From positions 11,644 to 75,643 of the forward strand of contig JAYZBQ010000022.1 in assembly GCA_036338695.1 (NCBI GenBank): 64,000 nt of DNA. Direction: 5' to 3'. This document shows, one piece after another, positions 40,973 through 59,581 of the stretch. Numbering within the stretch: position 1 is the first letter of the stretch; the number at the start of each line of letters is the position of its first letter. The notes below the pieces were generated by a model. It ran no database searches and was not told the DNA's origin. It was given only the letters and a program-made list of their open reading frames with translations. The DNA comes from Myxococcota bacterium. GTDB lineage: Bacteria > Myxococcota > UBA4151. A program made the translations under genes and the position numbers.

Positions 40973-41641
40973 ATGAACGACGCTTTGCTCTGGATCGGCG
41001 TAGGAACGGCGCTCGTCGCTGGGCTTTGGTCAGGCTACACGGTCTTTTATGAAGGTCAGCTCGAGCAGCCGGCCTACGAGACCGTGCTTCGGCAGAGCGT
41101 CTTCGAGGTCAGGCGTTACGAGCCCTTCATCGTCGCAACCACGCCGATTCGTGGTCAGGGGCGCGCGCAGATGAGCGACGGATTCCGCTCCTTAGCGGGC
41201 TATATTTTTGGGCGGAACCAACCGCGAGAAAAGCTGGCGATGACAGCGCCGGTCCTTGCGACCACCGGCGAGGCGCTCGGTATGACGGCGCCGGTGATCA
41301 CCGACCGCTCAGCCGGGCACATGGCGTTTGTGATGCCGAGCCAGCGCACGCTCGCCGACCTGCCTCGACCGACCGGGCGGGGCATCACTCTAAAGACCAC
41401 TGACTGGGGTTTGGTAGCCGCTGTGCGCTACGCCGGCTACGCCACCGAGGAGCGAGTCCAGCGTCAGACGAAGTCGCTCAATGAGTGGCTTACCAAGCAG
41501 GGCTATGAAGTGCGCGGCGAAGCGCTAAGCGCTCAATACAACTCACCGAGTGCCATGCCGCTCTTGCGTCGAAACGAGATCCTCATCCCAGTACGCCCGG
41601 TGGTTACGGTGCTGTCGAGCTCAGCTTCGGAAGCGGAATAA
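40973..41641 (+). CDS. SOUL haem-binding protein
   Basis: EQPAY, FEVRRY, GFRSLAGYIFG.N, MTAPV (x2), MAFVMP, RRNEILI. Confidence 0.92.
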   Translation: MNDALLWIGVGTALVAGLWSGYTVFYEGQLEQPAYETVLRQSVFEVRRYEPFIVATTPIRGQGRAQMSDGFRSLAGYIFGRNQPREKLAMTAPVLATTGEALGMTAPVITDRSAGHMAFVMPSQRTLADLPRPTGRGITLKTTDWGLVAAVRYAGYATEERVQRQTKSLNEWLTKQGYEVRGEALSAQYNSPSAMPLLRRNEILIPVRPVVTVLSSSASEAE

Positions 41642-42631: not shown

Positions 42632-43534
42632 ATGAAAAGCGTGATCACGGGTGCGACGGGCTTGATCGGTATGCGGCTGGCTCAAGGCTTGGACCAACCG
42701 ACCATACTCAGCCGGAACCCGGAGCGAGCGCAGCGCCTGATGCCCGGCGCGCAGGCTGTTGGGTGGGCACCGGAGCGGGAAGCAGCGCCGGTCAGTGCGC
42801 TGGAGGGGCGAGACGTAGTGTTTCACCTCGCTGGCGAGCCCGTGGCGTCGGGACGCTGGAGCGATGAAAAGAAGCGCAGAATACGTGATAGCCGAGTGAT
42901 CGGGACCCAGCGCCTCCTTGAGGGGCTGGCAGCCTGCGAACATCCGCCAAAGACGCTTGTTGCAGCTTCCGCTGTGGGATTCTACGGTGATCGGGGTGAC
43001 ACCGTCCTCGACGAATCCTCATCGATGGGCGAGGGCTACCTGGCCGAGGTCTGCCGCGACTGGGAGACCGAGGCGCTTCGCGCCGAGAGCCTCGGCATCC
43101 GTGTCGTCTGCTTACGCATCGGCATCGTCCTCGCAGAAGACGGCGGTGCGCTCGAGCAGATGCTCCCTATCTTCCGACTCGGAGGGGGCGGAAAGCTGGG
43201 GAGCGGTCAGCAATGGATGCCCTGGATTCATGTCGACGACGTAGTCGGGCTGTTGCTTTGGTCCGCCACCAACCCGGAGGCGAGCGGGGTCTACAATGGC
43301 GTGGCTCCCGAGCCTGTCCGTAACGCGGAGTTCACCAAATCGCTGGCGGCAGCGATCAACCGCCCGGCGTTTATGCCGGTACCCCGCCTCGGTCTACGGC
43401 TTCTGTTTGGCGAGAAAACATCGATCATCATGGCGTCGCAGAACATCCAACCCCGGCGCGCCTTAGGTGACGGATATCGCTTCGCCTTCCCCCAACTCGA
43501 CGGAGCGCTGAACACCCTTTTTGGTGCGGCGTGA
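42632..43534 (+). CDS. TIGR01777 family NAD-dependent epimerase/oxidoreductase
   Basis: ITGATGLIG, HLAGE, SRVIGT, ASAVGFYG, GSGQQWMPWIH. Confidence 0.92.
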   Translation: MKSVITGATGLIGMRLAQGLDQPTILSRNPERAQRLMPGAQAVGWAPEREAAPVSALEGRDVVFHLAGEPVASGRWSDEKKRRIRDSRVIGTQRLLEGLAACEHPPKTLVAASAVGFYGDRGDTVLDESSSMGEGYLAEVCRDWETEALRAESLGIRVVCLRIGIVLAEDGGALEQMLPIFRLGGGGKLGSGQQWMPWIHVDDVVGLLLWSATNPEASGVYNGVAPEPVRNAEFTKSLAAAINRPAFMPVPRLGLRLLFGEKTSIIMASQNIQPRRALGDGYRFAFPQLDGALNTLFGAA

Positions 43535-44922
43535 GGCGCACCCTGCTGTGGTTTCGCGGTAAGGACTTACGCGTCGAAGACCACGAGGGGCTTCACCGAG
43601 CGCTCGCCGCAGACGAGGTCATCCCCGTCTTTGTCCTCGACCCGTATTTCTTCGATCCCGAGCGCGCCCAAGCGCTACCGCACCGAATGCAGTACTTGCT
43701 CGATGCGCTCGAAGAGCTCGCCGGTGACCTGCGCCAGCTCGGCAGCGAGCTCATCATCGAGCAGGGGCGAAGCGTCGACGTCATCCCGACGCTGGCTGCT
43801 GAGTGGGCTGTTGACGAGGTCATTGCGCAGGGTTGGACTGAGGGCTTCGGGCGCCAGCGCGACGCCCGCATTGAGGCGCAGCTGAGCTGCCCGCTGACGC
43901 TAGTTGATGGCGAAACGATGGTCTCACCGGGCTCGGTACGGACGCAACAAGGCGGAGCCTACAGCGTCTTTACGCCGTACTGGCGACGCTTCATGGCGAC
44001 GGCGCAGATCGCCCCACCACGACCGCGCCCTTCGCAGCTCCCTCCCCTTCCATCAGGCTGCGAAAGCTCGGCGCGCATCCCCTCGCTCGACGAGCTCGGG
44101 ATCCAGCGAAATCACCAGCTCCTCAAAGGAGGCTCAACCGCTGCGAAAGAGCGACTTTCGGGCTTTCTCTCGGCACGCGTCGGGTCGTACAAAACGGCGC
44201 GCAACCGACCCGACAAGGACGGCTCGAGCCGCTTAGGTCCTGACCTCAAGTTCGGCGCCCTCTCGGCGCGCCAGATCTGGGCGGCGGCGCAGCAACCGGA
44301 ATTACGCTCCGATTCGGGGTCCTTTCGGCGGCAGCTGGTCTGGCGAGAATTTGCGCACGACCTCGTGTGGAACCAGCCCAGGCTTCTCACCGAACCCTTT
44401 CGGCCCAAGTTTCGTGAATTCCCTTGGATTGGGCTCGACGAGCACTGGGAGGCGTGGGTCGAAGGCCGTACAGGCTACCCCATCGTCGACGCAGCGTCTC
44501 GCCAGCTCCTCGCCACCGGCTTCATCCCGAACCGAGCACGCATGATCACGGCGAGCTTCCTGACCAAGCATCTGCTCATCGACTATCGGCGGGGCGAGGC
44601 GCATTTTATGAAGTGGCTCACCGATGGTGACTGGATCCAGAACAATTTTGGGTGGCAGTGGTCAGCCGGCTGCGGGTGTGACGCGCAGCCGTATTTTCGC
44701 GTCTTCAATCCGATCCTCCAGGGCAAAAAGTTTGACCCCCAGGGCACCTACGTCCGGCGATGGGTTCCTGAACTCGAAGGCGTGCCTAAAAAGTGGATCC
44801 ACACGCCTTGGCTCGCCGAGCGCTCGCTCTTCGCTGCCGATTACCCGGCGCCGATCGTCGATCATGCGACCGCACGTAAGCGCTTCTTGGAACATGCGAA
44901 GGCGTATCTAGCGACCGTCTGA
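43531..44922 (+). CDS. phrB: deoxyribodipyrimidine photolyase (cryptochrome/photolyase family)
   Basis: WFR.KDLRVEDH, VFTPY, SRLGPDLKFG, WREF, GRTGYPIVDA, NRARM, GWQWSAGCGCDAQPYFRVFNP. Confidence 0.93.
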   Translation: MRRTLLWFRGKDLRVEDHEGLHRALAADEVIPVFVLDPYFFDPERAQALPHRMQYLLDALEELAGDLRQLGSELIIEQGRSVDVIPTLAAEWAVDEVIAQGWTEGFGRQRDARIEAQLSCPLTLVDGETMVSPGSVRTQQGGAYSVFTPYWRRFMATAQIAPPRPRPSQLPPLPSGCESSARIPSLDELGIQRNHQLLKGGSTAAKERLSGFLSARVGSYKTARNRPDKDGSSRLGPDLKFGALSARQIWAAAQQPELRSDSGSFRRQLVWREFAHDLVWNQPRLLTEPFRPKFREFPWIGLDEHWEAWVEGRTGYPIVDAASRQLLATGFIPNRARMITASFLTKHLLIDYRRGEAHFMKWLTDGDWIQNNFGWQWSAGCGCDAQPYFRVFNPILQGKKFDPQGTYVRRWVPELEGVPKKWIHTPWLAERSLFAADYPAPIVDHATARKRFLEHAKAYLATV

Positions 44923-45432
44923 ACCGCGCTGCCGTCGAAACACACGAACAGCACGCACAGGCGTCTTGCCTGGGACCTTGAAGGTGACCTCTTCGTGAAA
45001 AACCACGTCACTGATTCGACGCCGTGCGGTCGTCATCAACCCCTGCGGAAAGCGATCCTCCGTCAGGAGCGTATCCCCCTTGCCCAGCCAGCGAGATCGA
45101 CGCTCAGTCGTCCCGCCGTCGAGATTTTTGCCGATCGCCCAGCGGTTATCCACCGGCAGGACGATCGCCTCATCGGTGAAGCGCGTGATGACACGAAAGC
45201 TGATCCCGCGACGGGTAGCTCGAATAACCTGCTTGACCGCCAAAGAGCTCATCACCTTCCGAGCGATCCAGCCGTAGCCCATCGCCTGGAGTACAGGGTC
45301 CAGCGAGGTCGAGCTTTGTGCGTCGAGCGACCAGGTCCCCTCCATCCAGACCGCCGGTTTCGCCTGCGCCGGCTGGGCAACCGAGCACACGCCCAGCGCC
45401 AGCGCACAGGCTAGATGCACCGTGGTCCTCAT
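44908..45432 (-). CDS. secreted FABP/calycin-fold lipid- or bilin-binding protein
   Basis: Signal peptide ending AQA; 'EGTWSL..SS..LD..LQAMGYGWIARK' matches the FABP N-terminal signature; C-terminal 'AVRVFRR'. Confidence 0.6.
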   Translation of the reverse strand: MRTTVHLACALALGVCSVAQPAQAKPAVWMEGTWSLDAQSSTSLDPVLQAMGYGWIARKVMSSLAVKQVIRATRRGISFRVITRFTDEAIVLPVDNRWAIGKNLDGGTTERRSRWLGKGDTLLTEDRFPQGLMTTARRRISDVVFHEEVTFKVPGKTPVRAVRVFRRQRGSDGR

Positions 45433-46271
45433 CGGCTGCTCTGCGTTTGAGTCAGCTCTTGTGTCAGCGCCAGACAGTCGATGACTCTGCTGCGCGTCAC
45501 GTAGTGGCGCCCTCCCGCGCAGATCCTCTTCATCGCCACGTCATGATCTTGGGCGAACAGCGACCTTTGAGCGTGCGCCAAAGGCACCTCATCCCCATCG
45601 CAAAAGAGCCGGCGGTTCACCACTCGGTAGGTGGCTCGCTCATCCACTACGTCGACCTCGAAGCGGCGCTCAAAGCCCTCACCTGAGCGCAGCTCAAGCT
45701 CTGCTCGCCCATCGGCTAAGTCGAGCTCGGCACGGACAAATCCGGGCTCCACCCAGCGTTGGCGAATACGCTGAATCGGGCTGTACTCGGCGATGCAGTG
45801 AAGGCGCGCCAAGGCGGCGCCAAAAAAATAGTCAGGCGTCTCTCGGCCATTGCCCGGTTTGGTCATCACGACGCGCACGTGCTCTGGCCGACCGATGCGC
45901 TGCCGCAGCGCTTGATGCCAAGGCGCGAGCAGTTCGATATGCTCCACGTGCAGCAAGCGCTCCTGTCGCTGCGCCAACGAGAACAATGCCTGCGCAGCCA
46001 CAGGCTCGAGCGCCACCGGAAACTCCACCACGACATCGCAGTCAGCCTCAAGAGCGCGCCGCACCTGCGCCTCATGCTCAGCAGAGGGCGAGCAGATGGC
46101 GACGGCCTCGACGCGTTGGATCAGGTCATCAAAACCGACCTCTGGAGCTTCAAACTCGTGTGCAAACCGACCTCGGCAGACGGCGCTGAGGGTCGCACCT
46201 GGATCCAGAGCGATCGCTCGGGCACGGGCGCGCCCGGCACGGCCAACGCCAACGACCCCCCAACGCACCAA
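45429..46271 (-). CDS. biliverdin reductase A-like oxidoreductase (Gfo/Idh/MocA family)
   Basis: VVGVGRAG, ICS.S..H, VVVEFP, LHVEHIELL, ALARL, GEGFER, LFAQD, RVIDCL all track BVR-A motifs. Confidence 0.75.
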   Translation of the reverse strand: MVRWGVVGVGRAGRARARAIALDPGATLSAVCRGRFAHEFEAPEVGFDDLIQRVEAVAICSPSAEHEAQVRRALEADCDVVVEFPVALEPVAAQALFSLAQRQERLLHVEHIELLAPWHQALRQRIGRPEHVRVVMTKPGNGRETPDYFFGAALARLHCIAEYSPIQRIRQRWVEPGFVRAELDLADGRAELELRSGEGFERRFEVDVVDERATYRVVNRRLFCDGDEVPLAHAQRSLFAQDHDVAMKRICAGGRHYVTRSRVIDCLALTQELTQTQSSR

Positions 46272-46290
46272 CGCTAGTCCGCCTACCCGG

Positions 46291-46803
46291 TCACGCCGAG
46301 CGCTTCGCCGGTGCCGCTTCCCGGGGCGGGAAGAGCTGATGCATCATCTCGTGCCGGTACCGAAAGATCCGGTCCACGTCGTTGCGCACAAACAAGCGCT
46401 GAATGATGGAGCCACCGAAGACACGGTAGATCACGCGGTCGGTGCACATCGTCCCGCCGTCTTGCTCAACGAACTCATGGGTATGGTGCCACTGACGGTA
46501 CGGCCCGCGTAGTTGCTGGTCGACGAAGCTGTGCGGCGGGTTCCAGTCGGTGATCTCGGTGCGCCACTTCAGCGGGATCCCCCGCAGCCGAATCCGGTAG
46601 TCGATCAGCGCGCCGGTTTTCATCTCGATCGGCTTGGGCGTCAGCACCTCGAACCGTAGGAACTCGGGCGTCAAAACCTGCAAGTTGTAGGCGTCTTGAA
46701 AGAACGCGAAGACCTCGTCGATCGGATAATCTAAAAAGCAGTGCGACTCGAGCAGCCATGACCCATCCGGCTGCCTTGTTTGCGTTACGTCGTTGTTGCT
46801 CAT
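46291..46803 (-). CDS. SRPBCC family protein
   Basis: VFAFF.DAYNL..LTP, WRTEIT, FVDQQLRGPYRQWHHTHEF, IFRYRH. Confidence 0.9.
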   Translation of the reverse strand: MSNNDVTQTRQPDGSWLLESHCFLDYPIDEVFAFFQDAYNLQVLTPEFLRFEVLTPKPIEMKTGALIDYRIRLRGIPLKWRTEITDWNPPHSFVDQQLRGPYRQWHHTHEFVEQDGGTMCTDRVIYRVFGGSIIQRLFVRNDVDRIFRYRHEMMHQLFPPREAAPAKRSA

Positions 46804-47357
46804 CAGCTCAACTCCTTCTCATCACGTTGTTCTAAAAGCGCTCGAGCGCGCTCGCTCAGGAGCCCGAGCGCAATCGACCAGACGGCGCCGACCGCAAGAG
46901 CTCCTTCTAAGCCATGGATCTCCATACACCCGAGCCGCTCTCCACCGAGATAGGCGGCGGGCCCACCAAAGGCGCCTACTGCCGTCGCCAGCCCGCGGGT
47001 CCGAAGCAGCGCGAACTGGCTGTGCAGCGCCGTGGCGCCAAAACCAGCCCACAGCGAGATCATCCACAAAGGCACGCCCGCGAGCCGCATGCCCCCGAAA
47101 TAGGTGACCGACCCGGTCGCCGCCAAGGTGGCGTCGGTGGCGAGTCCCACCCCGACCGCCCAGACCAGCATCAGGAGCTCTTGCCGCAGCGCTCGACGCT
47201 CAAACCAGAGATGAACGGCAACGAACATCGCCATCGCGCTCGGCCGCACCCACCCGACACCGAGCACACACGCCCACCAAGCCGCCTGATGGCTAAGCCA
47301 TTGCGGCGCGCCGCCCCATCGCCAGATCATCGGACGCTGAAGGACGTCGGCTACCAT
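46803..47357 (-). CDS. DUF2878 family membrane protein
   Basis: HQAAWWACVLG, PLWMISLWAGF, GGPAAYLGG.RLG. Confidence 0.8.
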   Translation of the reverse strand: MVADVLQRPMIWRWGGAPQWLSHQAAWWACVLGVGWVRPSAMAMFVAVHLWFERRALRQELLMLVWAVGVGLATDATLAATGSVTYFGGMRLAGVPLWMISLWAGFGATALHSQFALLRTRGLATAVGAFGGPAAYLGGERLGCMEIHGLEGALAVGAVWSIALGLLSERARALLEQRDEKELS

Positions 47358-48304
47358 AAGCTCGACGGGTACGGATCCAGGTAGACCTGCCCAGCAAGCC
47401 ACGGATGCGCCCCTTTATCCAACACCTGGTGTTTGAGGAGCGTGAGCGGCGCGAGCAGCGACGTCTGGCCGTTTCCGTAGGCTCGGATCGCCTCCATCGT
47501 GTGCTGCCGACAGACACGGCTCAAGCGCTTTGAAACGTAGCCCATGATGTGCTGGAGCACGTTGACGTGGCGCCCGCGCGTTAGCCGATGCCCCATCACC
47601 GACTGCGCCTGGCCCAAATGATCTGCCAGCTGTTCCTGGGTGAGCGCACCTTTCAAGCTCGCCACCTGCCGACCGAGCGCTCGCTGAGCGCCAGGATGAT
47701 GCGCCATGTACAGCAGCTTGTGCGAAGCATACTCTGCCTGAAGCGCAGCGACCGATGGGTCCTCGCGCAACGCTTTGAGCCGCCTGCTCGTAAAAATCCG
47801 ATGCAGAAACTGCTGACGCAACATGGCGTCTTTGAGCCAACCCTCTTCCGCGCGCGCGAGCGCCGGGAAGTCGTTGCGCAGACGGTGCGTCAAGAAGCCG
47901 GCATCGCGCGCCACGACCTGCGCTTTTCGCTCGACGCCGGCGTATACCTTGACGCCGCTGATCCCGCAGGTGGGCGAGCCGCGCTTGAGTAAGAAACCAT
48001 CGAGGTCCAAACGAGACAGCCGATCGCTGATCGATTCGAGGGTCGAGTCCATGAGCGCGGTGTGATCTACGCCGCTCGGTGACTCGACGAGCGCGTTACG
48101 GGTCTCGCCGCGCAGCACTCGCACGACGGGTCTAGGGACACCCATACCCGCTTCCACTTCCGGGCATACCGGGACGAGTTCGACGTGCTGAGCGAGGACG
48201 TCCATCACGAAGTTATCTCGCTGGTGCCCGCCGTTGTAGCGGACCTGCTCGCCCATCAGGCAGGCGCTGATGCCGACGCGCGGCGCAAGACGATCTGCTG
48301 TCAT
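47351..48304 (-). CDS. YbgA family protein (DUF523 + DUF1722)
   Basis: GISACLMGEQVRYNGGH, VCPEVEAGMGVPR, SPTCG, HKLLYMAH, NVLQHIMGY, QVYLDPYP. Confidence 0.92.
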   Translation of the reverse strand: MTADRLAPRVGISACLMGEQVRYNGGHQRDNFVMDVLAQHVELVPVCPEVEAGMGVPRPVVRVLRGETRNALVESPSGVDHTALMDSTLESISDRLSRLDLDGFLLKRGSPTCGISGVKVYAGVERKAQVVARDAGFLTHRLRNDFPALARAEEGWLKDAMLRQQFLHRIFTSRRLKALREDPSVAALQAEYASHKLLYMAHHPGAQRALGRQVASLKGALTQEQLADHLGQAQSVMGHRLTRGRHVNVLQHIMGYVSKRLSRVCRQHTMEAIRAYGNGQTSLLAPLTLLKHQVLDKGAHPWLAGQVYLDPYPSSLW

Positions 48305-48306
48305 AA

Positions 48307-48387
48307 AACCACCCAAAACGTTCGCTTCGCCTAGATATTAGCGCCCAAACTGCGTATTTACAAACCAACAAACGACCAAAACAACTT
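48307..48387 (+). promoter_or_regulatory. putative operator: two pairs of 9-bp direct repeats
   Basis: AACCACCCA-AAACGTTCG (48307-48324) and AAACGACCA-AAACAACTT (48370-48387). Confidence 0.65.
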
Positions 48388-48389
48388 TT

Positions 48390-49637
48390 ATGTTCCTCAT
48401 GATCCTCGCGCAGTCGCTCCTAGCGGCTCCCAATAGCGACGCCCCAAAGCCACCGGATACACGCCTCGAGCTCGCCGGTTTACCTGCCGTGACCTATCGG
48501 AGCGACGCAGGCCTGGGCGCCGGCTTGCTGGCCTCCACGGCTCGCTTTCGACCGGGCTGTGTCCCCTTCTGTTGGCGGGCGCTGACGCTACTCCAAGGGG
48601 TCATGCAGTGGGATGAGCAAGGCATAAAGGTCCCAACACGCAACGCGGTGGTCTTCCTTGACCTCCCCCAGTGGCAGCGCCCCAACTGGCGCCTCCTCCT
48701 GGCGCTGGCCAACTTCGATGATGACGAGACAGGATACCGGGGGATTGGGACGCGGCGGATCGCCGGTGGGACGCGAGGTACCCCCTCCTACGGCTGGCAC
48801 CGTCGCGTCGCCGGGTTCAAGTGGCGTCAGCGGTGGCTTGGACGACCGACGTCGCCGACGGGGTACCTCGACGCCTACCTCGGTACCGAGCTTGGCTGGA
48901 ACACCGTCACGGCGCCACCGGGTAGCCAACTCCAGCTCGACCGCAGCGCCCATGGCCGGAATCCAGACTCTTGGGCTGGTCTGATCGCACCGTATCTGCA
49001 GCCGAGCGGTGATCACCTCGAGCTCCTGGTCAGCGCCGGGGCGCTCTACGATCACCGTGACCACGAGTTCACGCCGAGCCGGGGTGGATTTCATGAAGTC
49101 AGCCTGCGCAGTGGCCAAGCAGCGGACGCAGGCCTCTGGGCGAGTCTCTTTATCGAGTCGTCGTTTTTCAAAACTCTGATCGCTCAGCGAGTCGTGATTG
49201 CGAGCCGCTTGCTGCTTGATCACGCCGTGGGTTCGGTCCCTGTGTATCGCCGCGCTGAGGTAGGCGGTCTAATCCCGCATCTCGGCGTGTCAGGCGCTGA
49301 GGGCGTCCGCGGGGTTCCGACCTATTACGAGGTGGGTCAAACCAAAGCCATCGCCAACTTCGAGCTCCGCTGGCGCGTCGTGGACCACGTCGTGGGCCAG
49401 CAAGCCCTCAGCTGGCGAGCCGTGACCTTCGTAGACGCAGGGCGGGCGTGGACCGATCTGCACAACGGATTGCTCGAGCCGCTCGATCTCGACGCACCAT
49501 GGCACGCTGCTCTGGTTGGGTTCGGTGGTGGCCTGCGTCTGCGATGGGGCCAAGCGTTTGTGCTGAGGATGGATGCGGCCTTTAGCCCCGTGACGCAAAC
49601 CAGCGGGCTCTACTTTGGGACCGACCACATTTTCTAA
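48390..49637 (+). CDS. Omp85/BamA-TamA family beta-barrel protein, no obvious POTRA domain
   Basis: 'LPAVTYRSDAGLGAG', YDHRDHEFTPSRG, GVRG, NFELRW, FVDAGRAW, GGGLRL, terminal F. Confidence 0.75.
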   Translation: MFLMILAQSLLAAPNSDAPKPPDTRLELAGLPAVTYRSDAGLGAGLLASTARFRPGCVPFCWRALTLLQGVMQWDEQGIKVPTRNAVVFLDLPQWQRPNWRLLLALANFDDDETGYRGIGTRRIAGGTRGTPSYGWHRRVAGFKWRQRWLGRPTSPTGYLDAYLGTELGWNTVTAPPGSQLQLDRSAHGRNPDSWAGLIAPYLQPSGDHLELLVSAGALYDHRDHEFTPSRGGFHEVSLRSGQAADAGLWASLFIESSFFKTLIAQRVVIASRLLLDHAVGSVPVYRRAEVGGLIPHLGVSGAEGVRGVPTYYEVGQTKAIANFELRWRVVDHVVGQQALSWRAVTFVDAGRAWTDLHNGLLEPLDLDAPWHAALVGFGGGLRLRWGQAFVLRMDAAFSPVTQTSGLYFGTDHIF

Positions 49638-50081: not shown

Positions 50082-50630
50082 ATGGCTGATCAGCATTTAA
50101 CGAGCACGAGAGTTGCGGAAATCCTTGGGGTTACGGCGTCAACGGTCAAACGTTGGGCTGACGAAGGCTCCTTGCCTTGCGAGCGCACCGCTGGGGGACA
50201 CCGGCGCTTCTTGGCGTCCGAGGTCGCACGCTTCCGACAAACAGAAGCAGACACCAGCGTGGCGCATCTGGCCACGCTAAGCGAAGAAGAGTTTGACGCG
50301 CTCCCGTACGGCGCGATCGGGCTCGACGAGCAAGGGGTGATCATCCGCTACAATGCAACCGAGGCGACGTTTTCGAACCACAAGGCGGACCAAGTTCTCG
50401 GGAGGAACTTCTTCACGCAGGTCGCTCCCTGCACCAACAACCGACTCGTCTTTGGCGCTTTTCGTGATGGGATCGCGTCGGGCTCGATGGACGTGAAGAT
50501 CCCCTACACCTTCACTTATGTGATGAAGCCGACCAACGTCGTGCTTCACATGGTGCGCTGCCAAGATACCCGGACCAACTGGCTGCTAGTCCACCATAAT
50601 ACGGATTCGACCGGCTCACTTATCGTGTAA
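50082..50630 (+). CDS. BldC/excisionase-type HTH fused to a photoactive yellow protein (PYP) domain
   Basis: HTH 'LTSTRVAEILGVTASTVKRWADEG.L...RTAGGHRRF'; PYP 'FDALPYGAIGLD..G.I.RYNATE...GRNFFTQVAPCT...YTFTYVMKPTNV' with Tyr42, Glu46, Cys69 and Met100 equivalents. Confidence 0.9.
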   Translation: MADQHLTSTRVAEILGVTASTVKRWADEGSLPCERTAGGHRRFLASEVARFRQTEADTSVAHLATLSEEEFDALPYGAIGLDEQGVIIRYNATEATFSNHKADQVLGRNFFTQVAPCTNNRLVFGAFRDGIASGSMDVKIPYTFTYVMKPTNVVLHMVRCQDTRTNWLLVHHNTDSTGSLIV

Positions 50631-54451: not shown

Positions 54452-55504
54452 ATGAACCCACGACGCACCGGCGTTCTGCTGACTCAACTCGGGACCCCCA
54501 AAGCTGCGACACAAGCCGCTGTCCGCCCCTTTCTTCGCGAGTTTTTGTCCGATCCGCGCGTGATCGACATCCCAGGGCTTGCGCGCGCAGCGCTCGTCAA
54601 CCTGATCATCGTCCCCTTTCGCACGCCGAAGTCGACCAAAATCTACCAAGAGCTCTGGGAAGTCGGCGGGGGTGAGTCACCGATTATGATGCACACGGAG
54701 GCTCTGACCGATGCGCTCAACGAGCGGCTCAAGGGCGACCACATCACCGTGCACATGGCGATGCGCTACCAAGCGCCGTCGATGGACGACGTGCTCGAGA
54801 CCATGCGGCTCGAGAACTACGACAAGATCGTGATCCTGCCGATGTTCCCCCACTACGCCTCGTCAAGCACCGGGACGGCGATCCAAAAGGCAATGGAGAT
54901 CATCTCGAAGTGGTGGGTGATCCCGGAGCTCGAGGTGGTCAATCAGTTCTACGACGAGGCCTTCTACATCGACACCGTGGTCGAGCAAGCCCGCAAGCAC
55001 GACCTGAGCACCTTTGATCACGTCGTCATCAGCTACCACGGGTTACCCGATCGACACGTCGACAAAGTCTATGAGGGCAAAGAGAACTTGTGCCGGGACC
55101 ACCACTGCGACGAGCGCGTCGATGAAGAGAACAAGTTCTGCTACAAAGCGACCGCTTACGAAACATCGAGATTAATCGCTGAAAAGCTAGGTCTAGAGCC
55201 CCATCAATACACCACCAGCTTCCAGTCTCGACTCGACGATAAATGGCTCACACCCTTTAGCGATGAGGTCATCGAGCAGCTCGCTAAAGACGGGAAGAAA
55301 CGTCTCTTGGTGTTCTCGCCTGCCTTCGTCGCGGACTGCTTAGAGACCTTGATCGAGGTGGGCTCAGAGTACCAAGAAATCTTCGAGGAGCATGGCGGCG
55401 AACACGTCCAGCTCGTCGAGAGCTGCAACACCGAGCCGACCTGGGTGGAGGGCTTGAGCGACTTCATCCGGCAGCGGCGAGTACGCCCGGCCAAGAGCGT
55501 TTAG
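54452..55504 (+). CDS. hemH: ferrochelatase
   Basis: LGTP, FLSDPRVID, MRY..P, PHYASSSTG, SYHGLP, FQSR, FVADCLETL.E. Confidence 0.96.
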   Translation: MNPRRTGVLLTQLGTPKAATQAAVRPFLREFLSDPRVIDIPGLARAALVNLIIVPFRTPKSTKIYQELWEVGGGESPIMMHTEALTDALNERLKGDHITVHMAMRYQAPSMDDVLETMRLENYDKIVILPMFPHYASSSTGTAIQKAMEIISKWWVIPELEVVNQFYDEAFYIDTVVEQARKHDLSTFDHVVISYHGLPDRHVDKVYEGKENLCRDHHCDERVDEENKFCYKATAYETSRLIAEKLGLEPHQYTTSFQSRLDDKWLTPFSDEVIEQLAKDGKKRLLVFSPAFVADCLETLIEVGSEYQEIFEEHGGEHVQLVESCNTEPTWVEGLSDFIRQRRVRPAKSV

Positions 55505-55505
55505 C

Positions 55506-57050
55506 TTACGGACAGCTGGGCGCCGCCTCGAGCGTCATGAGCGTCCATGCGGTCTGGTACCCGATCTGATGCGCTCGCCACGAGCGCCAAGCCGCCGAGT
55601 CACGCTCGCCGGGCTCCTGACCCAAGGCGCACTGCCCGGTGAGCAGCGTATAGAGGTACCCGCCGACCGCTTTGTCGAGGTCTCGGTGCATATGCCAGGC
55701 GTCTCGGTAGGCTGACTGGCCTGGGATCGCCTCACGCAGCTGCGCATAGAGCGTACGGATCGGCACGGCGCGAGCATGCGGCAGCTCGGACTGCTCGATC
55801 ATAAACCGCGCCACGCCGAGGTCGGTATCGTTCAAGGTGCCGCTGTCGCGATGATCGAGGCCGTATCGCATGGACTCGTCCCCGAAGTTGCCGTTGTCTT
55901 GCATCGGAAACCCAAAAGAGAACCCGAACTGCGACGGATCCACGCGGTAGCGCTTGTTTGGCTCAAAATTGGAGTTGGCGCGCCCGAAATTGAAATTAAT
56001 GGGCGCTTCGCCGCCGTTTTGGAGGATCTGCGGTGCTTGATCGAACACCCAGTTGAGCCCACCGAGGATCCCGCGCTCGGAGCTCGAGCCGGTGTGATGA
56101 TAGCTGATCACCTGCTCATCGACCCCGCAGCCACGAAACGGTGTGAGCGGCACGGCGACCCCCTCTTGAGCGGTGGGCTCCGCTGCGGCAACCACTTCAT
56201 AGGCGACCTGCGCCGCTTCGTCGTCGAAGGTGTAGCCCGACTGCGCAGCGCTGCGGCGAGTGATCTTGGCATAGATGGCTGCGGCGCCGAGATAGGCGCC
56301 CTGAGGTGACGGGTGACCTGAGCCCGCGCCTGGCTGCTGACGATCACCGAGAGCGTGCCATGCGCGCCCTGCTGGGACGACCTCGAGCGACGTCGCAGCG
56401 CCCAGCGCTACCCGGTGCGCAATGGACTCCATCTGATCCACCGCAGCCTCGGTCTCGTTACCCCGAGCCCAACCGGTCAAGAGCAGAGGCTGTCCGCCGC
56501 CGCTCACGACCGCAGCGGCGACCTTTTGCGTACCGAGGGCATGGTAGCCTGGCAGCTGCGCCATTATATAGGGATCGGGGCTGATCACCACATAGTCCCA
56601 CGCCTGATCATCGCCTCCGCTGAGCATGCGCCAACGCGCTTGCTGGTCCTCGGGCCAGTAATAGAACTGCGCCAACGAGTGCCGATGATGGGTGTAGGTC
56701 ACCTGAGCACCATTCTGCCCCAAACCGAGGGTCACGTCCTTGCTCGCATACAGATCATGAGCCGTGACCTCGACGCGTTCGGTTCCGTCGTCGCCCTCGA
56801 GAATCCGCCCAAGCTCAGCGGCGATCGACTCAGGCGAAAAGGTGGTCGCAGCGCCCCCCATCGAGCGGCTCGATCCGAGCACCAAAATACGGACCACGCC
56901 GTCACCGCTTCGGTCCGGGCTCTGCGCGATCACCGGTCCGCCTCCATCACGCCCCGCTTCATCACCCGCTCCTTCTGGCGCGCAGCCAGTCAGGCACAGC
57001 AGGGCAGCCAAGAGACCCTCAGAGCACCTCACGCCGCCCAGCCCGCTCAC
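55506..57050 (-). CDS. lipoprotein with SGNH-like N-terminal domain
   Basis: GTG start overlaps the upstream stop; lipobox LTGC; ILVLGSS, WDYVVI, VPAGRAW, HPSPQGAYL. Confidence 0.55.
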   Translation of the reverse strand: MSGLGGVRCSEGLLAALLCLTGCAPEGAGDEAGRDGGGPVIAQSPDRSGDGVVRILVLGSSRSMGGAATTFSPESIAAELGRILEGDDGTERVEVTAHDLYASKDVTLGLGQNGAQVTYTHHRHSLAQFYYWPEDQQARWRMLSGGDDQAWDYVVISPDPYIMAQLPGYHALGTQKVAAAVVSGGGQPLLLTGWARGNETEAAVDQMESIAHRVALGAATSLEVVPAGRAWHALGDRQQPGAGSGHPSPQGAYLGAAAIYAKITRRSAAQSGYTFDDEAAQVAYEVVAAAEPTAQEGVAVPLTPFRGCGVDEQVISYHHTGSSSERGILGGLNWVFDQAPQILQNGGEAPINFNFGRANSNFEPNKRYRVDPSQFGFSFGFPMQDNGNFGDESMRYGLDHRDSGTLNDTDLGVARFMIEQSELPHARAVPIRTLYAQLREAIPGQSAYRDAWHMHRDLDKAVGGYLYTLLTGQCALGQEPGERDSAAWRSWRAHQIGYQTAWTLMTLEAAPSCP

Positions 57051-59581
57051 GGTTTGACGTAGACCCAAAGGTAACGGTTTCCGTTGTGGTTCAAGCCAAA
57101 GCAGTTCGACGCCTCCCAACTGCAGCTGTTGTTGACGGTCAGGTTGCGACTGCTCTCGCTGCATCCGTTGCCACCTGCCCACCACGAGGTCCCGCTGTTC
57201 GGCTGGTTTCCGCTTGCGTAAATTTGGTTCGCTTGAATCGTGAAATTGGAATCCGTGATCAAGTTCGTTTCGGGGTAGCCGGACAGCCCAAGGCGAAAGA
57301 CGTTCTTGTTCACGTCGATGTAGCGATAACTGTTCCTGCTCGACCCGCACACGACGCGCAGCTTGTTGTAGTTGTTCAAGGCGCATGGCTGCCCCCACGC
57401 ACGCGGCACGTCATCACCGCCCGGCCGGTCATAATACCCTGCGCATTGCAACCAGCCGTCGCCGAACGCAGGCCCCGTCTCCCCCGAGAAGTTGGGCACC
57501 TGACCCGACACCTGACATTGGTTGGTGCAGCCGTCGTTGTTGTTTTGGTTGCCGTCGTCGCAGGCCTCGACCCCGGCACGTACGACGCCATCGCCGCAGC
57601 GCGCCGCGGTGCAATTGTTCAAGCAACCATCGGTCTGCGTTTGGTTGCCGTCATCGCAAGCTTCCACACCGACCTGCACCTGACCGTCGCCGCAGGACGC
57701 CACCGTACAGTTATTGAGGCAAGCGTCCCCCTGCTCGGCGTTGCCGTCGTCGCATGCTTCCACGCCCGCTTGGACCTGACCATCGCCGCAGCGCGCCGCC
57801 GCGCAGTTGTTCAAGCAGCTATCGGTCTGTGTTTGGTTGCCATCGTCGCACGCTTCCACACCGACCTGGACCTGACCGTCGCCGCAGCGGGCTGCGCTGC
57901 AGTCGTTGAGGCAGGCGTCGTCTTGATTGGCGTTGCCGTCATCGCAGGCTTCCACGCCGGCCTGCACCAAACCGTCACCGCAGGACGCCGCCGTGCAGTC
58001 GTTCAGGCAAGCGTCCCCTTGCTCGGCGTTGCCGTCGTCGCAGGCTTCCACCCCATCGTGGACGATCCCGTCACCGCAAGCAGCCCGAGCGCATTGGTTG
58101 GTGCACGCGTCCGTATCGACTCGGTTTCCGTCATCGCAGACCTCAACGTCGCGCTGGACGATGCCGTCGCCGCAAGCAGCGACCTGGCAGCTGTTGGTGC
58201 ACGCATCGTTCGGATCGGCGTTGCCGTCATCGCATGCTTCGACGCCAACGAAGAGCTCTCCATCACCGCAGCGAGCCAGACGGCAATCGCTCAAGCACGA
58301 GTCATCATCGCGCGCGTTGGCGTCGTCGCATTCCTCCCCTTCAAGCGCCAGGATCCCATCACCGCAGCGAGCGAGCTGGCACGCGTTGGTGCAGGCGTCG
58401 CGCGCCTCTCGGTTGCCGTCATCGCAAGCCTCCCCCGCGTCGAGACGACCGTTACCGCAGACCTCAAGACGGCAACGCGCATCGCAGCCATCGCCGACCT
58501 CCACGCCGCCATCATCGCAGGTCTCGCCCTCATCGATGCGACCATTCCCACAAGCCTCGACCCGGCAGACCTCATCGCATCCATCGCCGGCCACGGCGTT
58601 GCCGTCATCGCACCCCTCGGAAGCATCGACGCGCCCATTACCGCAGACCTCACGCAGACAACGAGCGTCACAGCCGTCACCAGGCTGGTCGTTTCCATCA
58701 TCGCATTCCTCAAAGCCTTCATCCTCGGGCTGCAGATCGCCCCGCTGGATGTCATCGCCGCAGCGCGCCACCTCACAGCGCAGGGTGCAGGCGTCGGTGG
58801 GGTCGGCGTTGCCGTCGTCGCAGGCTTCACGACCGGCCCATACCTGACCATCACCGCAGCTCGCCGCGGCGCAATTCGACAGGCAATCATCCGTCTCGTC
58901 GTCGTTGCCGTCGTCGCAGCGCTCGCCCTCCTGAACCACGCCATCGCCGCAGCTCGCTGGTTGACAGTTACGGCAGGCGTCCGTGGGGTCTTCGTTGCCA
59001 TCATCACAGCCCTCACCCGGACCGACGACGCCGTCGCCGCAGCGCGCAAGAATGCAGTCCGATAAGCAGGCGTCGGTGTCGACGTCGTTGCCGTCATCAC
59101 AAGCCTCAAAGCCAGCTTCCCCGGCGGCGCGATCTGTGCGCACCACGCCATCACCGCAGCGCGCAAGGCGGCAACCGCTCAAGCACTCATCCTCATCGAC
59201 CGCGTTGCCGTCATCACAGGCTTCGTAGTCCACGTCCCCTTCCGAGAGATCTGCGCGCACAAAGCCGTCGCCGCAGACCGCCACGCGACAGGCCGTCGTG
59301 CACGCGTCATCGTCCGCGTCGTTGCCATCATCGCAGGCTTCAAAGCCGTCCATGTCTGGGTCGAGGTCGGTGCGCGTGGTGCCGTCGCCGCAACGCGCAA
59401 TCGTGCAGCCGATCGTACAACCATCGGTCCCTACATCGTTGCCATCATCACACGCCTCGCCCGCCTCGATCGATCCGTTGCCACAGCTCGCCTCGGTCTC
59501 ACGAACGACCACCTGATCGCCGCACGAACCACTCAATACAAAGCTCGTCAGCAGCGCGCTGCGCAGGCCTTTAGACAGCAT
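57047..59581 (-). CDS. Cys-rich repeat (DUF4215-like) lipoprotein, paralogue of 10581-14069
   Basis: [15 protein letters not shown]-terminus; 20 CG(D/N)x repeats by my count; distinct Asn-rich C-terminal domain. Confidence 0.85.

Follow-up and report, generated by a model that had tools for sequence, protein, structure and literature searches.

A biliverdin reductase-family gene is coupled to a gene for an exported fatty acid-binding protein homolog in a candidate light-stress cluster of a marine Myxococcota bacterium

Fatty acid-binding proteins (FABPs) and the other intracellular lipid-binding proteins (iLBPs) are generally regarded as belonging to animals. Within it, UnaG is described as an FABP that binds bilirubin, and the chlopsid eel clade is defined by a Gly-Pro-Pro insertion in a loop between two strands (PMC4641735). 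In bacteria, the Rv0813c family was reported in 2007 as a group of proteins with an FABP-like barrel that was recognized by structure (PMC8561143). One 2023 paper places BvdR, the cyanobacterial counterpart of biliverdin reductase A (BVR-A), in mammals and many cyanobacteria, and for Actinobacteria it names unrelated F420-dependent enzymes only. Word searches of the open-access literature, which are no proof of absence in print, returned no description of a BVR-A/BvdR homolog outside animals and cyanobacteria or of a bacterial FABP homolog recognizable by sequence, and the Rv0813c family was the sole FABP-like bacterial group found. Here, we describe a 64,000-nt stretch of DNA (the window; contig JAYZBQ010000022.1, positions 11,644–75,643) from a marine bacterium labeled Myxococcota, in which a BVR-A/BvdR-family reductase gene runs directly into a gene for an exported FABP-like protein. 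The initial annotation of this locus proposed a module that makes and binds bilirubin. Judged from sequence, both family assignments are solid and apparently undescribed in bacteria, cyanobacterial BvdR aside, and the proposed function is a hypothesis open to testing. Our preferred explanation, with a probability of about 0.5, is a genus-specific add-on to a light-stress regulon, in which a BVR-family reductase would act on a conjugated carboxylate and an exported FABP would hold a hydrophobic carboxylate.

The reductase is a genuine, intact, full-length member of the BVR-A/BvdR family that is predicted to be cytoplasmic and keeps the catalytic arginine. Pfam recognized only an N-terminal Gfo/Idh/MocA Rossmann domain (PF01408, 4.6e-16), and the C-terminal half matched zero Pfam families even at E ≤ 10. 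A single-sequence phmmer search of the PDB ranked rat BVR-A first (9.1e-18), followed by human BVR-A (1e-15) and Synechocystis BvdR (1.1e-13). When a profile made from an alignment of 44 reductase homologs (A3) was searched against the PDB, the rat, human, and Synechocystis enzymes were all matched at full length (2.5e-38 to 7e-37), with profile positions 8–280 covering rat BVR-A residues 13–290 (2.5e-38) and positions 3–279 covering BvdR residues 13–323 (1e-37). The likeness to BVR-A along the whole protein that had been read by eye therefore extends over both domains. The next oxidoreductase in the same search matched over the N-terminal domain only (positions 3–128, 7.3e-19). The AlphaFold (AF2) model of the reductase had a mean predicted local distance difference test score (pLDDT) of 95.8, and its top Foldseek match was BvdR in complex with biliverdin and NADP+ (PDB: 5b3v; 3.2e-23). 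Homology to BVR-A (PDB: 1gcu, 1lc0, and 2h63) and BvdR (PDB: 5b3t, 5b3u, and 5b3v) thus covers the Rossmann and C-terminal domains and the fold is shared; identity to cyanobacterial BvdR is approximately 30%, the GxGxxG/A motif is common to all, and the stretch LHVEHIELL is identical in Synechocystis BvdR.

Active-site residues were mapped by counting in the profile alignment, and the offset was checked against the residue numbers in a study of the Synechocystis enzyme (PMC5309722). Conservation was counted across 49 homologs: 3 genus members, 33 other non-cyanobacterial proteins, and 13 cyanobacterial proteins. R156 corresponds to Synechocystis Arg185 (rat 171, human 172), described as the essential catalytic arginine (PMC5309722), and an arginine is present in 48 of the 49 homologs (3/3, 32/33, and 13/13, respectively). 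H66 and D242 are equivalent to His84 and Asp287, mutation of which is reported to lower activity strongly (PMC5309722), and both are kept in all 3 genus members and all 33 other non-cyanobacterial proteins. E83-F84-P85 aligns with Glu101-Tyr102-Pro; the glutamate is conserved in 3/3 genus members, and the tyrosine (rat Tyr97) is replaced by phenylalanine. Phenylalanine is found here in 3/3 genus members and in 19 of the other non-cyanobacterial proteins (tyrosine in 13, alanine in 1), whereas all 13 cyanobacterial proteins have tyrosine. Tyr102 is reported to be non-essential, with mutants retaining approximately 40%–50% activity, and Arg188 to form a salt bridge with a propionate of the substrate (PMC5309722). 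The Arg188 position is Cys159 in the window protein and asparagine in the two other genus members, compared with arginine in 46/46 homologs outside the genus (33/33 non-cyanobacterial and 13/13 cyanobacterial); rat BVR-A has tryptophan at this position. The equivalent of Lys237 is also lost. Because Tyr102 and Arg188 are replaced by Phe84 and Cys159, the reductase is best described, from its alignment, as a BVR-family protein with an altered substrate pocket.

The FABP-like protein matched zero Pfam families at E ≤ 10, PF00061 and PF14651 included, and zero NCBIfam models; it therefore matched no Pfam family for the Rv0813c group either. A single-sequence search against the PDB gave a best value of 0.064, to the nematode protein As-p18, and 16 of the 17 listed matches were FABP family members, the other being a phosphoenolpyruvate synthase. 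A profile built from a 44-sequence alignment of the wider FABP-like family (A4) matched animal proteins at full length, from strand A to the C terminus (PDB: 3pp6, 3.1e-16; FABP4, ∼2e-14; CRABP2, ∼1e-13). It retrieved 223 PDB sequences at E ≤ 0.01, and all 60 of those listed were FABP, CRABP, or myelin P2; a narrower profile (A2) reached 3.9e-4 at best. The FABP signature first noticed by eye is thus upheld by the profile, and the predicted fold agrees. The AF2 model has the βA-αI-αII-βB..βJ topology of the iLBPs (strand at residues 32–36, helices at 45–50 and 55–63, then nine strands), in the form of a ten-strand barrel with a helix-turn-helix lid. Its pLDDT was 79 overall and 78–96 per ten-residue block in the mature part, and it fell below 50 at residues 1–3 and 11–26. 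Foldseek returned 319 matches at E ≤ 1e-3, and all 50 shown belonged to the FABP family. VIA-align superposed all 135/135 residues on PDB: 1vyf (Z 20.3, root-mean-square deviation 1.5 Å), and 321 of 999 aligned chains had Z ≥ 8, with identities of 13%–21%.

Together, these results indicate that the protein is a true homolog of the animal FABP/iLBPs, with arginines aligned to the two that anchor the ligand carboxylate. The barrel and lid are common to animal FABP4, FABP5, FABP7, myelin P2, and CRABP1/2, whole chains superpose, the N-terminal G-T-W motif is shared, and arginines align with R106 and R126. Unlike the animal proteins, this one is bacterial, carries a Sec leader where they are cytosolic, has a two-residue insertion after βA, and has phenylalanine for Tyr128. 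The secreted nematode nemFABP As-p18 (PDB: 6i8x and 6i9f) is described as extracellular, like the window protein (PMC6646235). The Rv0813c proteins were recognized by structure; for the window protein, the match to animal iLBPs comes from a sequence profile, and lid helices are present, which sets the two groups apart, at least by description. The N terminus (residues 1–26) has a basic n-region, a hydrophobic core, and a cleavage site between AQA and K, all read by eye, and hydrophobic N-terminal leaders are present across the family alignments. From this leader the FABP-like protein is predicted to be Sec-exported, and none was predicted for the reductase, so the initial caveat that the two proteins occupy different compartments stands.

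In the alignment to FABP4, R137, R163, and F165 correspond to R106, R126, and Y128, the carboxylate-anchoring triad of FABP4. R163 is invariant across the 44 sequences and R137 is conserved in at least 90%; the core family has many further invariant arginines, and R111, R112, R114, and R139 are other invariant arginines of the protein. The closest structures and sequences are those of fatty acid binders (FABP4, FABP5, myelin P2, and squid and flatworm FABPs), and these, with arginines aligned to R106 and R126 conserved family-wide, point to the main rival of our explanation: the FABP-like protein would carry fatty acids, lysolipids, or oxidized lipids from light-stressed membranes, a job analogous to that ascribed to bacterial lipocalins and other calycins, and the reductase would act on an unrelated cytoplasmic substrate, linked by co-regulation only. 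The phenylalanine at the Tyr128 position speaks against it, as do the many extra invariant arginines, which would be unusual for a plain fatty acid pocket, and we hold this rival possible, on the unlikely side. Specific affinity to the UnaG/eel clade was not seen. The superfamily scaffold is common to both, but the Gly-Pro-Pro insertion is absent from the 174-residue sequence, as had been pointed out initially. UnaG was not among the matches listed (top 50 for Foldseek and VIA-align, top 60 for the PDB profiles), which is uninformative because the rows score almost equally.

The two genes are the last cistrons of a tightly packed, five-gene run on the minus strand, tail to tail with a photolyase gene (Table 1), and lie where the initial annotation had placed them, with all of the motif strings it quoted present in the translations. 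The reductase open reading frame (ORF) starts at the TTG at 46271 or at a GTG one codon further on. Third-position GC was 0.69 for the reductase ORF and 0.73 for the FABP-like ORF, resembling the neighboring genes. The claimed overlap of the reductase stop codon with the next start codon was seen at the junction as ATGA. Such an overlap usually marks functionally linked genes, which argues against co-regulation being the only tie between the two proteins; the rest of the operon, with an SRPBCC lipid-binding-fold protein and membrane proteins, is consistent with a lipid-handling role. The SRPBCC gene lies 19 nt upstream of the reductase and is syntenic in the two closest relatives (loci L004 and L005) at 82% identity. 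The first gene joins DUF523, a 2-thiouracil desulfurase by its Pfam name, to DUF1722, the domain found in E. coli YbgA, which adjoins photolyase; this link fits a near-UV stress theme. The photolyase gene converges on the operon and shares the last 15 nt of its 3′ end with the FABP-like gene.

Table 1. Features of the reductase/FABP-like operon and its surroundings (window coordinates unless a relative is named)
Feature	Position	Strand	Details or basis
BVR-A/BvdR-family NAD(P)H oxidoreductase (predicted)	45429–46271	−	280 aa; predicted without signal peptide
Exported FABP/iLBP-family protein (predicted)	44908–45432	−	174 aa; ATG start; mature part approximately residues 27–174
Signal-peptide coding part of FABP-like gene	45355–45432	−	Residues 1–26; read from sequence
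Stop/start codon overlap ATGA, reductase to FABP-like gene	45429–45432	−	4 nt; junction sequence
SRPBCC (polyketide cyclase/dehydrase-like) lipid-binding-fold protein, third cistron	46291–46803	−	PF03364, 5.8e-09
DUF2878 membrane protein, second cistron	46803–47402	−	PF11086, 2.2e-21
DUF523 + DUF1722 protein, first cistron	47351–48316	−	PF04463, 1.1e-33; PF08349, 3.7e-25
Divergent promoter gap of the operon, shared motif at 48369–48379	48317–48389	.	Motif scan
Deoxyribodipyrimidine photolyase	43531–44922	+	PF03441, 2.1e-79; PF00875, 1.3e-40; NCBIfam photolyase models
MerR-type helix-turn-helix (HTH) fused to photoactive yellow protein (PYP) domain	50082–50630	+	HTH residues 6–53; PYP residues 63–170, 3.9e-25
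SOUL heme-binding-family protein	40973–41641	+	PF04832, 3.4e-42
Ferrochelatase HemH	54452–55504	+	PF00762, 1e-92
AAAHCGACCAA matches, window	40888, 40940, 42569, 48369, 52088; also 38271, 38280, 5653, 7581		
AAAHCGACCAA matches, relative L092	331, 6100, 6162, 7735, 9760, 9814		
AAAHCGACCAA matches, relative L091	4522, 6177		

Around the operon and photolyase are genes for SDR-DUF1731, DUF1295, SOUL, DUF2177, RibA, FAD oxidoreductase, and HemH proteins. The SOUL and hemH genes noted initially were both confirmed by Pfam, and with the photolyase and a MerR-PYP protein they bear out a setting related to light or tetrapyrroles. Proteobacterial photolyase-linked light/singlet-oxygen stress clusters contain photolyase, DUF523/DUF1722, DUF2878, DUF1295, SDR, FAD oxidoreductase, and SRPBCC proteins together with an exported calycin-like protein of small size. 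Compared with these clusters, a true FABP homolog would occupy the calycin slot here, a BVR-family reductase has been added, and the candidate regulator is the MerR-PYP protein. This fusion, encoded 1.7 kb from the operon and 82% identical in a relative, is a candidate blue-light-sensing transcription factor of the cluster, on the basis of its two domains.

A motif, AAAHCGACCAA (at most one mismatch), had 17 matches in the window against 1.72 expected and lies in four AT-rich divergent promoter gaps, a count that is partly circular because the motif was derived by eye from those gaps. The same gaps in the relatives provide an independent check, with 8 matches against 0.90 expected at L092 and 5 against 0.53 at L091, and the L092 gap orthologous to the operon promoter gap holds two copies. 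AAAHCGACCAA may act as an operator or promoter element common to these gaps. In two salt-marsh RNA libraries, contigs cover the operon at 90%–99% identity; one (45379–45529) crosses the reductase/FABP-like junction and another spans 46157–46911. These contigs are compatible with co-transcription without proving it and are unusable for ranking genes. The one bin without cover in X18 (48359–48500) is uninformative.

Conservation of the pair was assessed at 80 BVR-like loci, the best of 542 that were confirmed in contigs drawn from one genome per species. An FABP-like gene accompanies the BVR-like gene at 2 of the 80 loci, which are also the two closest (L004, 48% identity; L005, 42%), and the whole cluster is syntenic in both relatives (L004/L092 and L005/L091). 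Conversely, a BVR-like gene was found at 0/28 distinct FABP-like loci outside the genus, most of them covered with just 1.5 kb of flanking sequence. Among 301 genomes sampled from the window's phylum, a true BVR-like gene (E ∼1e-104 to 1e-112) is present in the window's genus only (3/3 genomes in addition to the window's own), and six other BVR-like matches (∼1e-21 to 1e-23) are confined to the Rossmann domain. In the sister genus, the FABP-like gene is present and the BVR-like gene was not found. The pair therefore does not form a conserved module, and the co-occurrence called for initially is limited to adjacency within one genus. We infer that the pairing is a recent genus-level invention, which makes it a lineage-specific add-on and not a widespread module.

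Among genus members, the reductase gene has diverged more than any other in the cluster, with 42%–48% identity compared with 55%–83% for most neighbors. This low identity and the lost Arg188 equivalent mean that its function may have shifted or be weakly constrained. They also lend something to the idea that the two proteins share no function, the reductase being a displaced, fast-evolving, perhaps decaying copy and the coupling meaningless; the long branches of the genus and the absence of the pair outside it agree with that idea. The reductase frame is intact, however, with zero internal stops, and its adjacency to the FABP-like gene is kept in 4/4 genus genomes. Its core catalytic and cofactor residues are conserved and the model is very confident, and we regard a meaningless pairing as improbable.

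The history of the reductase can be read in part from its relatives. At 10 of 30 other non-cyanobacterial BVR-like loci (L006, L008, L009, L010, L012, L014, L026, L037, L041, and L051), the gene immediately precedes, on the same strand, genes for a multiheme cytochrome c7-like protein and a ∼1050-aa molybdopterin/4Fe-4S-like protein, as read from the match and the 1–4 kb downstream of it. We take this partner pair to be actA/actB of alternative complex III (ACIII). In the tree, the genus clade (support 100/98) is nested at 98/85 in a 13-row clade that includes 7 ACIII-adjacent rows; its stem is long (0.42), and cyanobacterial BvdR forms a separate clade (100/100). The reductase probably moved from its usual site upstream of an ACIII-like operon and then evolved fast.

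The FABP-like gene is far more widely distributed than the pair. The core family had 14 matches in 5.8 billion sequences, and an exhaustive profile search gave 289 representatives (50% identity) at E ≤ 0.001, mostly of 150–190 aa. Some are multi-copy proteins of 800–1400 aa with 2–4 copies of the domain, and P0138, P0139, P0141–P0143, and P0145–P0147 (800–1440 aa), with 3–4 profile stretches each, show that tandem multi-FABP-domain proteins exist. A Pfam scan of 39 relatives left 35 without a family, and one reached 22.2 bits for PF00061 against a cut-off of 23; members of the family's clusters carry "hypothetical protein" names only. The ESM Atlas holds unnamed bacterial clusters of 51–147 members with the same features or fold, which are commonest in Myxococcota, Pseudomonadota, and Verrucomicrobiota. 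The gene is present in 5/5 other genomes of the window's taxonomic family and, at 26 places, in 22 of 301 genomes sampled from the phylum of a Myxococcota-labeled genome.

The surroundings of these FABP-like genes bear on lipid carriage in two ways: most members of the family lack a BVR-like gene and have neighbors such as cupredoxin, GMC oxidoreductase, and enoyl-CoA hydratase or thioesterase genes, which suits a carrier independent of the reductase, but the neighbors are heterogeneous and name no pathway. An enoyl-CoA hydratase or thioesterase gene is nearby at L111, L120, and L121, RibA and an amine-oxidase-like gene are the neighbors at one locus of the 26, and the remainder are mixed, so that a single pathway is not evident across the 26 loci. 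In both sister-genus genomes examined, a plastocyanin/azurin-family cupredoxin gene immediately precedes the FABP-like gene (L089, 9344–10486, plus strand; L090, 3662–4821, minus strand). At 4 of the 26 loci (L113, L116, L117, and L118, each approximately 1–2000), the same-strand gene directly before it encodes a GMC-family FAD oxidoreductase, and proteins with MopE-type copper-binding motifs adjoin it at L109 and L122. Both the window (57047–59581, minus strand) and the neighborhoods at L089 and L090 also encode secreted proteins of large size in which DUF4215 cysteine-rich repeats, collagen-like repeats, and fibrinogen-like domains occur; such extracellular domains are eukaryote-like and unusual in a bacterium.

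A module that makes and binds bilirubin needs a source of biliverdin. The window was initially noted to lack a heme oxygenase, and this caveat extends to the organism's own genome (3.36 Mb, 93.6% complete), which had zero matches to PF01126 (canonical heme oxygenase), PF05171 (HemS/ChuS), PF03992 (ABM/IsdG), and PF10615 (DUF2470/HugZ), and zero matches to the phytochrome PHY domain. PF01126 was also found in 0/5 other genomes of the family (59%–94% complete) and in 0/5 other BVR-like-bearing genomes (4.9–9.0 Mb). A missing match in an incomplete genome does not prove absence, and heme-opening enzymes of other kinds are possible.

These results bear most directly on the proposal that the reductase makes bilirubin from biliverdin IXα and that the product diffuses across the inner membrane and is held by the exported protein, in the manner of UnaG, as a photoprotective antioxidant. 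The sole characterized activities in the BVR family convert biliverdin to bilirubin, and the essential arginine is kept. Loss of BvdR is reported to raise oxidative stress in a cyanobacterium (PMC10608806), and UnaG is described as binding bilirubin on the FABP scaffold (PMC4641735). In the window, both candidate carboxylate-anchoring arginines are conserved within a core family rich in further invariant arginines, SOUL and HemH are encoded in the cluster, and the genes are translationally coupled. Against this stand the missing heme-degrading and phytochrome matches, the confinement of the pair to one genus, the two compartments, the lost Arg188 equivalent, the phenylalanine at Tyr102, and the absent Gly-Pro-Pro motif. 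What holds of the original proposal is therefore the family calls, the coupling, the leader, and the light setting, whereas conservation, the biliverdin source, Arg188, and the Gly-Pro-Pro insertion speak against it, and we judge bilirubin production and storage unlikely. A variant without a classical heme oxygenase would be a light-switched bacterial "rubin" antioxidant system, in which a bilin is reduced to a bilirubin-like compound and the exported FABP homolog keeps the product in the periplasm; prey, the environment, a heme-opening enzyme of another kind, or non-enzymatic oxidation of heme could supply the bilin. We consider this variant distinctly unlikely.

The organism's genome also encodes a microbial rhodopsin (PF01036, 2.3e-43; locus L131, G000:C80:5413–6054) on another contig, which implies that the organism uses light directly. 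An exported iLBP-like protein might then bind a retinoid or apocarotenoid acid tied to the rhodopsin or to light-induced pigments, with the reductase acting on a polyene. The strong profile and fold matches include CRABP and CRBP, the cluster appears light-related, and an FABP-like carotenoid binder is described in a sea urchin (PMC4156332). However, retinal or carotenoid biosynthesis genes were not seen in the cluster, and the rhodopsin gene is separate from it. Reduction of polyenes is not known for BVR-family enzymes, and we find this reading highly improbable.

In our preferred explanation, the genus-specific add-on, the cluster is probably induced by blue or UV light, as its gene content, including the nearby MerR-PYP gene, and the shared promoter motif suggest. 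The cytoplasmic reductase would carry out an NAD(P)H-driven reduction of a conjugated, carboxylate-bearing substrate, for which linear tetrapyrroles are the leading class, and the periplasmic FABP-like protein would hold a hydrophobic carboxylate, by default a fatty acid-like lipid and possibly a bilin. Both proteins would protect against photo-oxidative damage. Several of the findings above count against this explanation as well as against bilirubin: the changes at Tyr102 and Arg188, the low identity of the reductase, the circular element in the motif count, and the lack of matches to heme-degrading families in the host and of PF01126 in related genomes, a lack that distinguishes the host from the usual BVR-A/BvdR setting, as the gene's place within a photolyase cluster distinguishes it from BvdR. 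Two general objections are that the proteins reside in different compartments and that genes can be adjacent and coupled without their products sharing a ligand.

Whatever the ligand, the window encodes a member of what appears to be a Sec-exported bacterial family with full-length sequence homology to animal FABPs and without a Pfam model or name. Likewise, Myxococcota-type and Eisenbacteria genomes without a canonical heme oxygenase carry a large branch of the BVR-A/BvdR family, which raises the question of its substrate. If the "rubin" system were true, BVR-A and FABP/iLBP, held to be animal hallmarks (BVR-A being otherwise cyanobacterial only), would have sizeable undescribed bacterial branches offering UnaG-type bilin or lipid scaffolds. 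Should the pair make and hold a bilin, it would represent a route of photoprotection new to bacteria and a source of UnaG-like reporters; if the ligand is not a bilin, exported bacterial FABPs would provide an entry to periplasmic lipid handling and to the origin of the iLBP fold.

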